Source: a bacterium (GTDB lineage: Bacteria > UBA10199 > 2-02-FULL-50-16 > JAJFLM01). From it: 64,000 bases of DNA. The stretch's first letter is position 1. Every line of letters starts with the position of its first letter. Made by a program: the position numbers. Of this stretch, positions 33,001 to 54,000 are shown piece after piece. Location: positions 1,792,001 to 1,856,000 of the forward strand of contig CBDCFN010000016.1 of NCBI GenBank assembly GCA_965216315.1, read 5' to 3'.

Positions 33001-36000
33001 ATATTTGTCTGCATTCTGGTCTGTTCGATTTGTCCCGCAGTGAACATCGCCATGTTGGCCTTACTCGCCTCGACCGAGGCATCGATCGCTGGATTGTAAT
33101 CAACCGGGTCGGGAGCGGCCGATGGCTCGTCTCCCCATACCTCATCCACTCCCCATCCTATCAAGGCCCCCGCGCTTCCGCCCAAGATCCCGCCAAGCAT
33201 CTTACCTAAAAAATCCATACGCACCTCCTCATGCTACTATTATTATCGAGGGGGAGGCTTGGAGCGTTCCGAGTCGGACCTCAATCAGGCTGCTAATCGT
33301 ATTCCACAGAATACGGGCGGAATACGCCCTATTTTGACTTTTGGATGATCACCGGGATGATCACCGGGGGGATATCCGGGCTAATCTGGTCTCTAGCAGC
33401 TCCAGGAACCACCTCGGGACTTGTTTGCTCTTGAGGTGCTTCGATCACGCCTGGTGAGTGCTCTATCCCTGGATGGGATTGAAAGAGCTGATGGCATGAG
33501 AGCGGAAGATAGGCCAAGAAACCCTCTCCTGCCACGTCGTCACAATTTTGCCCCTCTATCGCGAAGAGACAGTCTGACAACTGAAACATATCGTAGGTGA
33601 GATCACCCGTGCCCATATGGGCCCGGACATATTCTAAATCGTGATCCGTAACACCGAGCGCTCCCAGAAATTCACTCTGCAGGGGCTCTTTATTAAGCGC
33701 ATCGCGACAATCCTCGCGGCTTATCTCTGGTTGACAGCGAGCTGCCGTCTCACAGACCTTATCGATGACATCATCGATCCCTGACTGACGCGTCGGAGGC
33801 TGCTCCGTCTCACCGTCCATTGTAGTTGGTGGTGGCTCTTCAAACTGTGGATTTCCGGTCTCAGTACCCAGCTCAAGCTCTTCACTGGGGGAAAGGATGT
33901 CGGGGGCAGATCCCGCCCCCAGGCTTTGATGGGCCTGGTTACAGCCCCAGAGGGCGGAAACCAGGCCCAATAAAATGATCAGAACGGCTCTTGCCTTACA
34001 CATACGCACCAGAATAACATTATCGGCACGCTTCTTCCATTGAGTTGCCTATTCTCTGTCTTTATTCACGACCGCAATCGCCGGTATCATATTCGTCGCG
34101 ATCGACGCGAACTTCTTGGCCGCCATTGATCAGCTCCAAGGTTACGTTTTGGCTGTCGCCCGGGGCATGGGGAAAATACGCACAAAGGGTGTCACCACTC
34201 TGGCGGTAAATGCCATAATAGTCACGATTCGTGTTGTCGCGAATCTGAGTGCTCCAAAAAGCAAACCCAAACTGCGGTTGACCGAAATTAGGACTATTAA
34301 CCTGATCATTGACAGGGGCAAAGTCAAAGATGGGGTCCTCCCAATAATCACCATTGGGAATCACGTTGATGGTCGGACAATCGTAACGGGCAATCTCCGC
34401 ATCAAGGTCATATTGATGGTCGACGGCACCGCAGCTGACGAGTTCATTGCCATTATCATCTTCAAAAACAAAACGCGCTAACATTCCAAGCTGAACCTCG
34501 GCTTCAACGCTCGTTCGATCAAAGCTAATATTCGGAAGCACTAAGTGTATCTGATCATCCACTAATTCATAGGTTCCGACATCAGTGTTATTGACCTCAA
34601 CACCACCATTGCCGTTAAAATAAATTTCGCTGATGCCACCGGCCGCATCAATGCAACGATAGGTCACGTTATCCGAATCAGCTAACGTCCCCTCAAAATC
34701 ACCGCAAAGGGCGGATGGCTCATTGGCGGGTGGAACGTCGCCGCCATTATTGGCAGCATTATTTGCAGTATTGTTGTTGTTCCCAGCATTCGTATTGTTG
34801 TTTGAGCCGGTTTCGCCATTACAGGCAACCACACTCACGGTAAGTAAGATCATGGCTAAGTGGCCGAAGAAATTGATTGATTTGGTTTGTTTCATCTCAC
34901 ACCTCACAGTATTAAGGACAATTTTTAAATAGTGGATAGCTACGCTCTCAATGGTTGTTGTTTACAAGATTCATGCCACGCTTAGAAAAAACCCCTAACT
35001 AGCTGATATAGCTAAGAAATAGTACTTTCAGGACTGGAGGTATGAAAGGTAATTACATGAATACAATGCAATAAATATATACTGCATCGCATTCTGATAA
35101 TCTGATTAATATTTAGTATAAGAAGGAACGCACCGAATCACGGATCAAGAGCAGTATCTTGGACGGAAACAGGCCCCAATAGGCTGTCAGCAGCAAACAA
35201 ACAAATATCCCTGTTAAGAGGGAATAACCGCTTTGAAGCATCCTCTTTTCCGAAGCGGGTTTAAAAAAGAGAATTTGGATGATGCTAAGCGCTCCAAATA
35301 AGGAAAGCGCCCAGCCAATCAGGGCCAGTGAACCATAAATGATCAGGCCACCATCAAAGACGACCCGCAAAATAGAAAAAACACCAATAAAACCAGCTGT
35401 CATCGGAACCCCGGCGAGACCCAAGACAAATAAAGCCATCGAACAGGCGAGCCAAGGATGAATCCGCGCAAGCCCACTAAACTCCGTCAGCTCCAACGGC
35501 TCATCACCACGCCGGGCCGCAGCCATGATGACGGCAACCAAACCCATTATAAGTATCATATAAACGAGCACGTAATAGGAAAAAGCCACAAAGGCCTCTT
35601 CTTGGAGGCGTCCACTGCGACCCGCAACGGCGAGCGCCAGCAAAAGAAAACCAACATGCCCAATCGCCGCATAAGCCATCCTCCGCTTAAAGTGACTTTG
35701 CTGCAGTGCCTGCAATGGCCCGATAATGACCGCAGCACTGCCGGCAATACCCAATAAATGAGTCCATCCTAGGATAGTAGGACTCCATCCGGCGATAACA
35801 AGGCGCGACAAAACAGTAACGCCCACTAACTTACTGATGACGGCCATAAACCCGACAGAGACCGTATCTCCACCTTCATAGACATCCGGTTCGCTAAAAT
35901 AAAACGGAACCCACCCCATCTTAATGGCCACACCACCAAGAAACAGCAGTCGTCCCAGCTCCTGAATGTCATCCAATGACTGCGTTCGACCGACAGCAAA

Positions 36001-51000: not shown

Positions 51001-54000
51001 AACGGGGACCTCCCCACACTCGTAAGTCGTTAATTTTTCAGCAGTTGGGACGGAGGGACGCACCAGTCGGCCCAGACTGAGTGAGACCATCACAAAGCCG
51101 AAGCCAACAAGGAAAAAGACTAATATATTCGACAAGTTGAGAGGCATTTGACTCCTTGCATCAAACCGCGTCGTATACTTATCGAGGCCCCTGGGCATCG
51201 TCAAGGGCTTTATGATTAGAATCATGAGGAAATGCCTAGTCTTTCTCCGAATGCGGAGTTTGACAAGCGTACGGATGCCCCGTAAAGAAAGCTCCGTGTC
51301 AGCAACTTGGACAAAAGTGGCCCTGGTGAGCCTCGGAATGCTTATTTTAGCAAGCCCTGCCGGCTATGCGCAAGAGGCAGAGCCGGCCGCCGCTCCGGAG
51401 GAAGCCGAGACCAAGATCCCCGGAACCGGCTCTGACACCTTCATCCAGGTCCAAGTTCACAAGATTCTGCTGACGTTCGTGGACTTTCATAAACACGAGC
51501 CACTCCGGGCCGCGAAAGAACAAATGAGATCCATCCCCGGGGTCACGGATTTCATTCCCCATACGGCGACCAAGGGGCTCATCACCTATGATGTCCGTTA
51601 TTCAGGAACCCCTCGCCTCCTCATGAAAGCCCTCAAAGACACTATCGGCGTAAAATATGAGTTGGGTCTCAAAGAAATAGCTAAAAAAGAGTGGGAAATT
51701 ACGGTTCGAAAATTATAAACCCTAGCTACTTTGCTTCCTGAACTCATCGACATTATCGCCAAGAGTCGAGAACCGTACGATCGACGCGACTTCAACTCGG
51801 TCTTCTTTAAGCTCGTGCTTTTCTCGATGGCACTCTCATTCTTGGCCTCCAAATTAGCCGGCCATCTCCCCCCCTGGCTTGATCAGGCCTTGATGCCTAT
51901 CCTCGGACTGATCTGGGCCTTTGTCTTCGTGTTTATCTTCGCCGCGATCATCAGGCGCCTTCGAGACCTCCACTGGTCGCCTTGGCTCGCACTCGTCATG
52001 ATGATTCCGTTGGCGAATTTTATCTTGTTGTTGTTTTTGCTCTTGAGGAAAGGGCCGCTGACTGCGCAGCCCAACAGAGAAGACGACCACGCCGGCTAAA
52101 GTGCGATTTCACTTTATGACTTCATTCACATGTGCGGAAGCAGCATTGTATTTGTAAACGAGTTCCCCCCCGCTATGACCGACAAGAGCCGCTACTATCA
52201 GATTGGCGATGACTCCAGCGAAGCAAAGCCCCCTAATGAAATTTCCGTAACGCGGATGCGGCCAAAGACCGGCAACAAGCAACAGACAGAGAACTCCTGA
52301 GACCCACACAAAAACCTCTGCTTTCTCCTCATGCGCCTCTATCACTTGTTCGTTGACGACCCGCTCGACAATCTCTTCATCCTGCTCGCCCGCATTCATA
52401 GCCAGCAAACCGGTTCCAAATAAGATTAATTGCAACAGGATGAGAAATACCCACGTCCTGGAAGGGATCCACCTTTTAAGAATTGCAATCCAGATCCCGA
52501 GCACTAGAATAGGCATGATCAACGCAATACCTAGCGGAACATGAACAACGGCCGGATGCAGTGGAATATCAAACATAAAAACCTCCTGGTTTCATCTTAT
52601 GATATTACCTCTGCTTCAAATTTCCGGCTATGATATCGCTCAGATTAAACGTACAAAAAAGCTGCTAGACCACAGGGGCCTAACAGCTTTTTTTGCGCGC
52701 CCGGAAGGATTCGAACCTCCGACCCCCTGGTTCGTAGCCAGGTACTCTATCCAGCTGAGCCACGGGCGCTTCATAGGGGCTTGCGTCGCCCCCTCCAGAA
52801 GCAAAGCTCCTGGAGCCTCCCCCTCTCGCTCGCTCTGCTCGCTAGGGAAGGCTTCAACAAAAGTAAGGGCGGTTCACGAACCGCCCTTACTTCAATTCAA
52901 TATATCACAATAAACTAATTAAATCTTGCCTTGGAGCAAGAATGCAATAACCAGCGCATAAATGACCAGCGACTCGATCAGGGCCAGCGCGATGATCATC
53001 GGGGTCTGCACCTTACCGGCAGCACCTGGGTTGCGAGCGATTCCCTCAAGGGCCGCCGTTGCCGCCTTACTCTGACCAAAGGCACCACCAACAGCGGCAA
53101 TCGCAATACCGAAACCAGCCGCCAGGGCCAGGGCTGACTTAACGTCGCCACTCGTGCCGCCCATCGCACCATGATCTTGAGCCCAAGCCATCGCCGGGCC
53201 TAAAGTTGCAACGAAAGATGCTACCAACATCCAAAAATATTTCCGCATGAGAGTCTCCTTAAATAGTTCCAATTTAATATCTAATGTTCATGCTCTGTGG
53301 CCAAGCCCACGTAAATGAGCGACAACAGAGAAAAAACAAAGGCCTGAATAAAGGCCACAAAAACACCCAAACCAAGAAAGATTACCGGAACCAATAACGG
53401 CACCAGATCTGAGAAAATTCCCAGCACCAAGTGATCCCCAGTAATATTTCCGAACAAACGCAATGACAACGAAACCGGCCGCACCACGTGTCCAATTAAC
53501 TCAATAACCAGCATTAAAGGTGCCAGCCAAATAATAGGACCCATAAAATGCTTCAGATAACCGGGTCCATGTTCCTTAAAACCTACGTAATTATAATAAA
53601 CAAAAACCGTTAGGCCGCAGGCCAGGTTGGTATTGATATTGTCCGTCGGGGGCAGAAAACCTGGAATCACCGACAAGAGATTACATAAAAAGATATAAAT
53701 GAAGAGTGACCCGATGATCGGCAAGAACCGTGGAGCCGACTTGCCCGCGATTCCTTCAACAAGACTCAAGAGCTGCTCGACGGCCACTTCAAAAATATTC
53801 GTCAGACTTCCCTTGGATTCGGGAACCAGCCGCGCCTCAACATTGCGCAATTTTAGATACACGGGAATCGTCAATAACGCGATCACGGCGACGACAAGCG
53901 TCGAATACATCATGTGGACATTATGATGATCGACTTTCTCAAAAAATAACTGCGCCCAAGTAAAATGATGCACGTCAACTTTCCTCTTCGGTCTGAGGGC

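Follow-up and report, generated by a model that had tools for sequence, protein, structure and literature searches.

The window, a stretch of 64,000 nucleotides of bacterial DNA, carries an operon for an 11-subunit complex I that continues into five further genes, J'K'L'M'N', which probably derive from the arm genes of an otherwise deleted second complex I operon and would now encode a 'headless' and catalytically degenerate membrane module with a structural or other non-pumping role. The 16 co-oriented genes (35113-51225, minus strand; open reading frames and Pfam) encode NuoABCDHIJKLMN followed by the primed set, and their coordinates are given in Table 1. We refer to the 11-gene nuoABCDHIJKLMN operon as op1 and to the second, NADH-module-bearing complex I operon as op2; the genomes of the host family are G000 (the source of the window), G001 and G002, which represent three genera. 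A preliminary description had reported an 11-subunit complex I without NuoE, F and G (open reading frames, Pfam) that shares its operon with a second J'K'L'M'N' set (also self-BLAST), and our analysis agrees. Its interpretation stands in part: the set is complete and cognate, shares the transcription unit of the 11-subunit complex I and is kept in different genera, but neither the proposed duplication of the op1 arm nor a second pumping arm is borne out.

Table 1. Features of the op1 operon, the primed module and the flanking d213 gene (window positions).
Feature	Position	Strand	Evidence or remark
nuoA (op1)	50704-51147 or 50704-51225	minus	PF00507, 1e-31; likely start 51147, AAGGAG ahead
nuoB (op1)	50194-50688	minus	PF01058
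nuoC (op1)	49649-50176	minus	PF00329, 3.7e-43; start codon
nuoC-nuoD spacer, 160 nt	49494-49648	minus	
nuoD (op1)	48343-49488	minus	PF00346, 2.8e-88
nuoH (op1)	47135-48340	minus	PF00146, 5.8e-112
nuoI (op1)	46637-47116	minus	Fer4 families; two 4Fe-4S motifs
nuoJ (op1)	46132-46635	minus	PF00499, 8e-34; TM3 Tyr present
nuoK (op1)	45827-46135	minus	PF00420, 8e-24; both membrane Glu present
nuoL (op1), 683 aa	43771-45822	minus	PF00361, PF00662, PF01010
Inserted lateral helix (HL) segment of NuoL	43921-43983	minus	Residues 614-634 plus 4 more
nuoM (op1), sole M of the intact set	42252-43757	minus	PF00361, 6e-76
nuoN (op1)	40750-42240	minus	PF00361, 1.5e-73; op1 N clade, 100
N-J' spacer, 62 nt	40688-40749	minus	AAGGA ahead of the J' ATG
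J', divergent NuoJ homologue, 162 aa	40199-40687	minus	hhalign, 95.9%
K', divergent NuoK, 101 aa	39897-40202	minus	PF00420, 1.6e-13
L', divergent NuoL, 613 aa	38047-39888	minus	Self-BLAST; below Pfam cutoff
L'-specific motif VFEDxLPIRSE, loop before TM15	38437-38469	minus	Alignment
M', divergent NuoM, 490 aa	36578-38050	minus	PF00361, 1.3e-27
N', divergent NuoN	35113-36603	minus	PF00361, 2.7e-40
d213, conserved 213-aa gene of unknown family	32120-32761	minus	Lies at the downstream limit of op2 throughout the class

The op1 genes describe a complex I that looks functional and has no NADH module. NuoB has the cluster N2 cysteine positions when aligned with E. coli NuoB, and NuoL scores 725 bits with the NCBIfam NuoL model, above its cutoff, and keeps all nine membrane-core key positions scored; in its lateral helix D563 is replaced by Ile, at a position that is variable among canonical NuoL proteins of the class. 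Gaps between the nuo genes are not all 62 nt or shorter, as had been described, the largest being the 160 nt between nuoC and nuoD. Within this spacer, the final 56 nt of nuoC (49651-49706) recur at positions 49496-49551, and a 45-aa open reading frame (49494-49631) ends in the copied NuoC tail. Neither a terminator-like nor a promoter-like site was found in the 62 nt between nuoN and J', and J'-N' are predicted to be transcribed behind op1. There are start/stop overlaps at J'/K', L'/M' and M'/N', and N' is 496 aa long counted from the ATG behind GAAGGAGG. As the five genes are open and translationally coupled, judged from sequence, their proteins are probably made.

Each primed protein is closest to its cognate Nuo family. 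The self-BLAST pairing reported earlier is reproduced for N' with N (27% identity, E 1.4e-37), M' with M (6.5e-25), L' with L (21% identity over the full length, 6e-14) and K' with K (2.4e-4). J' gives no match in self-BLAST, Pfam or NCBIfam; it had been regarded as NuoJ-like merely by size, membrane topology and position, but its profile aligned by hhalign with six canonical NuoJ proteins (probability 95.9%, E 6e-9) shows it to be a NuoJ homologue. K', M' and N' fall below the NCBIfam cutoffs for NuoK (50.6 bits, cutoff 57), NuoM (153.9, cutoff 263.8) and NuoN (237, cutoff 332.6), and L' does escape Pfam (16.3 bits, cutoff 21.5). L' retains its own lateral helix, of normal length, and the C-terminal anchor helix. 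HMMER over 1.84e9 representatives recovers eight L' proteins at E<=1e-30, itself included, and the scan of species genomes yields two relatives and no others, both as first reported.

The residue losses do not support a working pumping arm. K' lacks both membrane glutamates, as had been noted (E36 is Leu, E72 is Gln), and J' has Leu for the TM3 Tyr and a 4-aa insert in TM3. For NuoL we scored ten key positions; eight of them (D178, K229, H254, H334, H338, K342, K399, which is Arg, and D400) are missing from L' in all three orthologues, E144 is kept in two of the three and D563 solely in G001. M' retains E144, K234, K265 and H348 and lacks K173 and E407, and N' retains E133, K158, K217 and K247, with K395 replaced by Val. 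The terminal residues of NuoM and NuoN are among those lost from M' and N'. Both proteins retain a Glu in TM5 and a Lys in each of TM7 and TM8, so that some ion handling is possible.

The origin of the primed genes is suggested by what follows op1 in related lineages. In 21 of 26 op1 operons outside the host family (6/6 and 15/20 in two samplings) a second nuoA follows nuoN on the same strand; in the other five, no second nuoA is found within the 1.6-2.5 kb fetched after nuoN. The operon that follows op1 in the sister family genome G003 reads A, B, CD, E, F, G, H, J, K, L, M, N (Pfam, tblastn). At its other end op2 stops just before d213 in at least 24 genomes. In 24 of 58 relatives outside the family, an op2-type nuoL is followed on the same contig and strand by d213 at a distance of 2.8-4.2 kb, and in G006 and G021 d213 comes directly after nuoN. 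The distance from N' to d213 is 24 nt in G001 and 2.3 kb in the window. In related lineages op2 (nuoA-B-C/D-E-F-G-H-J-K-L-M-N) begins immediately behind op1 nuoN and stops ahead of d213.

Similarity points the same way. When op1 and op2 homologues from one genome are compared, the primed protein scores higher with op2 in 45 of 48 pairs, and L' lacks the op1-type lateral-helix insertion. In the trees, L', M' and N' lie inside the NuoL, NuoM and NuoN clades (support 100, 97 and 100), apart from Mrp paralogues. A recent duplication of op1 nuoN, which would place N' in a clade with the NuoN of its own family, is rejected (delta lnL 75, p-AU 4e-8); with synteny and similarity indicating the arm of a neighbouring second operon, the earlier proposal that the op1 arm was duplicated as a module is not supported. 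Two placements of N', with op2-type N (p 0.375) and as sister to all op1 N (p 0.35), are not distinguished by the AU test, so the op2 origin is argued from synteny and similarity. In the free tree L' groups with the degenerate op1 L of G003 (SH-aLRT 92), which we read as putative long-branch attraction. From the op2 synteny, the 45/48 similarity and the rejected nuoN duplication we infer that the ancestor of the host family lost op2 nuoA-H and the unlinked nuoI and kept J-N.

The rest of the genome is consistent with such a loss. An op2-type unlinked nuoI, present in five of five other genomes, was not found in G000. NuoL matches of the G000b type at E<=1e-150 occur in all three family genomes and none of 90 others, and a different 14-subunit complex I is carried by the host family alone; op2 may have been lost after, or during, its gain. 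There are two NuoH genes, one of them in op1, and two NuoA genes in the genome versus three J-K-L-M-N sets (G001 has two NuoH genes and G002 one), and since the arms outnumber the NuoH genes, the best reading is a membrane module that is headless and not driven by redox chemistry. By homology the products would form a J'K'N'M'L' arm clamped by the lateral helix of L'. Such an arm would lack a dedicated NuoH, NuoA and quinone module, the E-channel carboxylates and a charged axis through L', and so could not be a canonical redox-driven pump, although residual ion conduction via N' and M' may persist.

It is unlikely, but deserves weighing, that the op1 enzyme physically includes the primed module, either placed beyond NuoL or swapped for J-N; it would then have as many as six antiporter-like subunits, part of them with a structural role. 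The single transcription unit in three genera and the N-J' gap without a terminator-like site speak for it, as do three arms for two heads with an arm retained after head loss, and sister family G003 also keeps a catalytically dead op1 next to a live op2. The op1 NuoL also has a lateral-helix duplication, with repeat units FDNRVVDGIVN and FDRIFVDGIVN spaced by exactly 26 residues and an amphipathic insert; excerpts of PMC9040806 propose such an insertion, in the Nitrospira 2M complex I, as room for a fourth antiporter-like subunit. The duplication is, however, class-wide (36 of 93 genomes at E<=1e-36) and therefore independent of the primed module; the insertion is found in 7/7 op1-type L proteins and is absent from 8/8 op2-type L, G000b and E. 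coli L and from L'. Moreover, the module would descend from an arm made for other NuoH and NuoA partners, the normal-length helix of L' would close a self-contained three-subunit arm, an alternative arm would be uncoupled as K' lacks both E-channel glutamates, and the op1 subunits that the primed proteins would contact evolve much more slowly than they do.

That the module is functionless, a decaying remnant whose frames are open only to avoid downstream polarity or through too little time, we judge improbable. Most catalytic residues are gone, with losses that vary among orthologues (N' K247 and K395, L' E144), the primed genes are the fastest-evolving of the neighbourhood, and in G001 d213 follows N' closely; against this, three other genes now lie between N' and d213 in the window, and simple deletion would do equally well, yet none is seen. 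The order L-M-N-J'-K'-L'-M'-N' is retained on contig C426 of G001 (G025:C426 in the preliminary description), where M and N are 81% and 66% identical to those of the window (N, M and L 66-81%, d213 82%) and the primed proteins 28-45%. G000 and G001 have all five frames open (about 5.6 kb), and in G002, where J' and K' are fused as one 212-aa open reading frame, J'K' and L' are open up to the contig end. All eight L' representatives are full length (613-648 aa), the start/stop overlaps are kept, and the L' alignment has 29 invariant columns that include a newly fixed charged motif (Table 1), whose F, E, P, I and R do not vary among the 9 family members aligned. A stand-alone cation/proton antiporter of the Mrp kind that merely shares the operon is highly improbable. 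Excerpts of PMC7419157 describe NuoJ, K, L, M and N as homologous to the MrpA C-terminal part, MrpC, MrpA and MrpD, the abstract of PMC3464577 states that deactive complex I can function in Na+/H+ antiport, and M' and N' retain their Glu in TM5 and Lys in TM7 and TM8. The module is not adjoined by any homologue of MrpB, E, F or G, however, its L, M and N proteins nest in Nuo clades away from the genome's Mrp paralogues, the charged axis of L' is lost, and the terminal TM12 residue differs between orthologues; a complete Mrp cluster (MnhE, MrpF, MnhG, MbhD, MbhE, MnhB, an MrpC-like gene and three antiporter-like genes) is present elsewhere.

The remnant-arm reading finds partial parallels among described systems. 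Like the Nitrospira-type 2M complex I (Chadwick et al. 2018, as excerpted in PMC9040806, PMC12342949 and PMC7419157), op1 has separate NuoC and NuoD, no NuoEFG and a lateral-helix insertion of about 26 residues in NuoL; unlike it, op1 lacks the defining second NuoM, as just L, M and N are encoded by the window's own op1 and all 26 outside op1 operons, and the extra antiporter-like genes are a whole J-K-L-M-N set from another operon. Complex_I_3 of 'Ca. Manganitrophaceae' and its sister complexes (Yu et al. 2022, PMC9040806) similarly exceed the canonical three antiporter-like genes with MrpD-like subunits and NuoM copies, but those are presumed, in the excerpts, to pump within one arm, whereas here a J, a K and a separate lateral helix accompany the three extras, from which key residues are missing; the same excerpts mention lateral-helix insertions in complexes without extra subunits, 'in evolutionary transition'. 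The highest antiporter-like gene count found in the literature searched is five. The primed module resembles the Mrp (Mnh/Pha) antiporter (PMC7419157, in part) as a redox-free assembly of NuoL-, NuoM/N-, NuoK- and NuoJ-like parts. It differs from Mrp in lacking MrpB, E, F and G and an MrpA-type fusion, and in phylogenetic placement. Cyanobacterial NDH-1 isoforms have exchangeable NdhD/NdhF modules on one core complex, an arrangement in which alternative antiporter-like subunits likewise share a core, but the exchange there is confined to the distal M- and L-like subunits, which are functional, whereas here the set is a full J-N and K' lacks the coupling glutamates. In the degenerate op1 of G003 (contig C9), NuoB lacks three of four N2 cysteine positions, K E72 is Arg and channel residues of L and M are lost, so that there too one of two tandem complex I sets stays open after the loss of catalytic residues; in G003 the whole op1 is kept beside an intact op2, whereas here op1 is intact and the op2 arm alone survives.

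The long retention of five large membrane genes without a known job is odd, and it could mean that the module serves the op1 enzyme.

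The operon comprises sixteen genes whose reading frames overlap or are separated by 0–29 nt, the exceptions being the nuoC-nuoD spacer of 160 nt and the 62 nt between nuoN and the next gene, J'. Its first eleven genes (op1, nuoABCDHIJKLMN) form one cluster in which every product scores above the Pfam cutoff for its subunit (NuoA, B, C, D, H, I, J, K, L, M and N), and which, without NuoE, F and G, fits the 11-subunit form of complex I. In alignments the N2 cysteines of NuoB, NuoK E36 and E72, NuoJ Y59 and the Glu/Lys/His set of NuoL, NuoM and NuoN are all present, and every scored membrane-core position is kept, the sole difference being lateral-helix D563 of NuoL, which is variable among canonical NuoL proteins of the class. 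ATP synthase F0 genes lie directly upstream on the same strand. Four very large ORFs are present elsewhere in the window, and none matches a Pfam family at E<=1e-5 save for one TPR match.

The nuoC-nuoD spacer includes a second copy of the end of nuoC, 80% identical at the DNA level and 17/18 in protein, in which a 45-aa ORF terminates; the differences between the copies are mostly synonymous, which suggests that both tails are, or were, translated. The op1 operon of one class relative (G038) has approximately 4.5 kb of unrelated sequence between nuoK and nuoL.

The remaining five genes (J'K'L'M'N') encode divergent Nuo-like membrane proteins. N' and M' pass PF00361 (139 and 97 bits) and K' passes PF00420 (50.6 bits); L' falls below the PF00361 cutoff (16.3 vs 21.5 bits), and J' has no match in Pfam, NCBIfam or PDB sequences. 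The best NCBIfam models for N', M', L' and K' are the cognate NuoN, NuoM, NuoL and NuoK, with all scores under the curated cutoffs (237 vs 332.6 for N', 153.9 vs 263.8 for M' and 102.9 vs 556 for L'), and profile-profile comparison pairs J' with six canonical NuoJ proteins at 95.9% probability. A joint tree places L', M' and N' within the NuoL, NuoM and NuoN clades (SH-aLRT 100, 97 and 100), apart from the Mrp paralogues of the genome, and full-length alignment to NuoL shows that L' has the complete NuoL architecture of core, TM15, lateral helix and terminal TM16. Self-BLAST reproduces the pairing of each primed protein with its op1 cognate that was reported in the preliminary description, and its gene-level observation of an op1 set followed by J'K'L'M'N' stands on the Pfam, NCBIfam, self-BLAST, J' profile and tree results together.

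L' has a narrow distribution, as was first described. Among 60 relatives, its orthologues (33% identity; E 9e-86 and 6e-43) are confined to the other two genera of this family, G001 and G002, and the species-genome collection likewise yields these two relatives alone. A HMMER search of 1.84e9 representatives gives eight L' proteins at E<=1e-30, the query included, all of 613–648 aa; two metagenome scans with L' alignments and word-based protein searches find no L' relatives, the word-based searches giving one partial relative of N' (P0107). The previously noted order L-M-N-J'-K'-L'-M'-N' is indeed retained in G001. In G002, L-M-N is followed by a 212-aa ORF that joins J' TM1–4 to K' and contains ten consecutive N close to the 3' end, and then by L' as far as the contig end; this fusion is topologically sensible only because J' has lost its fifth helix there.

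The location of the primed genes points to their origin. A search of 93 class genomes with the last 170 residues of NuoL from the window gives a full-span match at E<=1e-36 in 36 and a degenerate one in the sister family (G003), and these matches define op1 as a widespread 11-gene operon. In 26 op1 operons examined outside the family a second nuoA follows nuoN on the same strand in 21, and in the remaining five only 1.6–2.5 kb past nuoN is covered. This nuoA belongs to a second, NADH-module-bearing complex I operon (op2), which in G003 reads A, B, CD, E, F, G, H, J, K, L, M, N. There is no nuoI between H and J in the op2 operons (L021, L060, L063, L065 and L070), and an unlinked NuoI-like gene, with frames of 173–220 aa, is present in all five genomes checked (G003:C24, G006:C16, G050:C24, G021:C12 and G057:C1:968898); no unlinked gene of this op2 type was found in the source genome.

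The op2 side is bounded by d213, a conserved gene for a soluble-looking protein without a Pfam or NCBIfam family and with only 'hypothetical' clusters in the protein atlas. It is present in 87 of the 93 class genomes with 57–83% identity, usually directly 3' of nuoN of the NADH-type operon, as in G006 and G021 where it follows immediately, and its product may be a factor linked to complex I. Of 58 non-family relatives, 24 carry it 2.8–4.2 kb downstream of an op2-type nuoL, with both genes on one contig and one strand, many of the others being split between contigs. The distance from N' to d213 is 24 nt in G001 and 2.3 kb in the window, where three small ORFs lie between them that are absent at the same place in G001. 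With op1 upstream and d213 downstream, J'–N' therefore occupy exactly the op2 J–N slot.

Sequence comparisons agree with this placement. In 45 of 48 pairs a primed protein scores higher against the op2 homologue than against the op1 homologue of the same genome, the N' C-terminus matches the op2 pattern, and L' has no op1-type helix insertion. For N', to which the AU test was applied, a clade with the family's own NuoN, as expected of an in situ tandem duplication of the op1 arm, is rejected (delta lnL 75, p-AU 4e-8), and the test does not separate a position with op2-type NuoN (p 0.375) from one as sister of all op1 NuoN (p 0.35). Recent horizontal acquisition is unlikely, because composition does not vary along the operon and synteny holds on either side. 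On synteny, similarity and the AU rejection, the duplicated arm originally proposed gives way to an arm that probably survives from a second, now decapitated complex I.

Locations of features in the window, the source genome and its relatives
Feature	Location	Strand	Description
Complex I operon	window 35113-51225	minus	16 genes
op1	window 40750-51225	minus	nuoABCDHIJKLMN
nuoC-nuoD spacer region	window 49494-49706	minus	last 56 nt of nuoC (49651-49706) present again at 49496-49551
Spacer ORF	window 49494-49631	minus	45 aa
d213	window 32120-32761	minus	213 aa
ORFs between N' and d213	window 33329-34907	minus	a 137-aa ORF and two ORFs predicted to be lipoprotein-like, one of which has an Asn-rich low-complexity stretch
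ATP synthase F0 genes	window 52919-54439	minus	atpI-like, a subunit, c subunit
Large ORF	window 12947-19210	plus	2087 aa
Large ORF	window 19474-23697	plus	1407 aa
Large ORF	window 24521-29701	plus	1726 aa
Large ORF	window 57021-61559	minus	1512 aa
G000b	C16:302-317 kb		14-subunit-type complex I; NuoF-like gene (312.8 kb) in the D-H gap
Mrp cluster	C16:1925-1933 kb (within 1925000-1940000)		complete; about 95 kb from the operon
NuoF-like gene and molybdopterin oxidoreductase	C16:2090.8-2094.9 kb (L093 5832-9931)		oxidoreductase with NuoG-like N-terminus
J'-K' fusion ORF	G002:C83, L020 4575-5213		212 aa
Decayed op1	G003:C9; L026 7575-15100, L021 1-1946		open frames
Unrelated sequence within op1	G038:C13, L067 6059-10570		between nuoK and nuoL

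The rest of the source genome (2.96 Mb, 98% complete) contains twelve PF00361 genes: six in this operon, three in a different complex I operon (G000b) and three in an Mrp cluster. There are two NuoH and two NuoA genes in total, so that there are two heads to three J-K-L-M-N sets. NuoL proteins of the G000b type are found at E<=1e-150 in all three family genomes and in none of 90 others, a restriction to the family that fits a history in which another NADH-type complex I replaced op2. The genome has two NuoF-like genes, one within G000b and one at 2091 kb. We considered the latter as the missing N-module of op1 and rejected it, as it adjoins a formate-dehydrogenase-like molybdoenzyme, and the pair looks like an NAD-linked formate dehydrogenase.

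The primed proteins have lost much of the machinery of proton translocation. Key positions of NuoJ to NuoN carry the E. coli residue numbers of the literature; the residue identities were checked on the E. coli proteins of NC_000913.3, which served as the reference. Neither K' nor J' keeps any of its positions: in K', E36 is Leu in all three orthologues and E72 is Gln in two, the third being ambiguous, and in J' the TM3 tyrosine Y59 is Leu and TM3 has a four-residue insert. L' has lost D178, K229, H254, H334, H338, K342 and D400 in all three orthologues, and K399 is Arg in six of nine family members; of the nine-position charged/polar axis from E144 to D400, E144 alone is retained (in 2/3 orthologues and 7/9 family members). 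M' keeps E144, K234, K265 and H348, with the TM5 Glu and the TM7 and TM8 lysines present, and has lost K173 and, in both orthologues, the TM12 residue E407. N' keeps E133, K158 and K217, with K247 in two of three and K395 in one of three. Divergence is fast, the primed proteins of the source genome and G001 sharing 28–45% identity vs 66–81% for N, M and L and 82% for d213. The primed reading frames are all open, their start/stop overlaps are retained, N' has a strong ribosome-binding site, and 29 alignment columns are invariant in the L' family, among them a charged motif (VFEDxLPIRSE) absent from canonical NuoL. Judged by these sequences, the primed proteins are under selection but are no canonical pump.

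The sister family provides a second instance of decay. The op1 frames of G003 are open yet decayed: NuoB is without three of the four N2 cysteine positions, NuoK E72 is Arg, channel residues of NuoL and NuoM are lost, and no op1-type nuoI was found in the genome. This op1 appears to encode a catalytically dead complex I and, together with the relic arm of the family, implies that the keeping of a dead complex I paralogue as open frames recurs in this order.

The op1 NuoL (683 aa) has a further feature, an amphipathic tandem duplication in its lateral helix with units FDNRVVDGIVN and FDRIFVDGIVN spaced 26 residues apart, which is present in seven of seven op1-type NuoL proteins and none of eight others. 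The 2M complex I of Nitrospira has as its hallmark an insertion of ~26 residues here, proposed to give space to a fourth pumping subunit, and Manganitrophaceae complexes also carry such an insertion, some without extra subunits (PMC9040806). Op1 shares the insertion with the 2M type but differs in having no second NuoM, either in the window or in the 26 other operons examined, where L and N always flank a single M; M', although NuoM-like, is part of the op2-derived set. With the duplication present and a second M in none of the op1 operons examined, op1 may draw on a subunit from elsewhere. The duplication is class-wide and is uncorrelated with the primed module.

We consider it probable that J'K'N'M'L' form a headless, redox-uncoupled module that is retained for a structural or other role, as the lost relay residues and preserved frames would suggest. 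Attachment of the module to the op1 enzyme is unlikely; the shared operon and the extended NuoL helix would suit it, and the helix is found across the class irrespective of the primed genes. That the genes are in plain decay is doubtful given the intact frames, overlaps and ribosome-binding site, with rapid divergence and residue loss on its side. An Mrp-like transporter is highly improbable: the proteins are antiporter-like, but no MrpB, E, F or G genes lie beside J'–N', and all of these are in the separate Mrp cluster, which codes for MnhE, MrpF, MnhG, MbhD, MbhE, MnhB, an MrpC-like protein and three antiporter-like subunits. A small 2x4Fe-4S ferredoxin gene is located near that cluster.

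A broader and quite speculative proposal, to which we give a small chance, is that the tandem op1 and op2 sets throughout the class encode one paired assembly rather than independent isozymes. The helix duplication of op1 NuoL would reach over or clamp an antiporter-like subunit of the op2 arm, and a partner that loses catalysis, the op2 head here and the whole of op1 in G003, would keep its membrane arm as a dead scaffold. If so, the complex I encoded in the window would have six antiporter-like subunits, of which three would be live and the others structural; the highest numbers we found described are four or five (PMC7419157; PMC9040806). Our literature search yielded neither a J-K-L-M-N set lacking A–I, nor an operon with six antiporter-like genes, nor a description of the class-wide pairing of op1, with its 2M-type helix and three antiporter-like genes, directly upstream of an NADH-type complex I. 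This pairing bears on the purpose of the helix extension.

The headless module, as the probable reading, substitutes a testable history for the attractive but unsupported claim of a duplicated pumping arm. A second complex I would have lost its electron-input and quinone modules, and its five-gene arm would have outlasted them through the whole radiation of the family. Such an arm, retained while it evolves fast and deprived of its charge relay, would be nature's equivalent of engineered, dissected antiporter modules, and could help to tell the parts of NuoJ–N that folding and assembly require from those that serve pumping.
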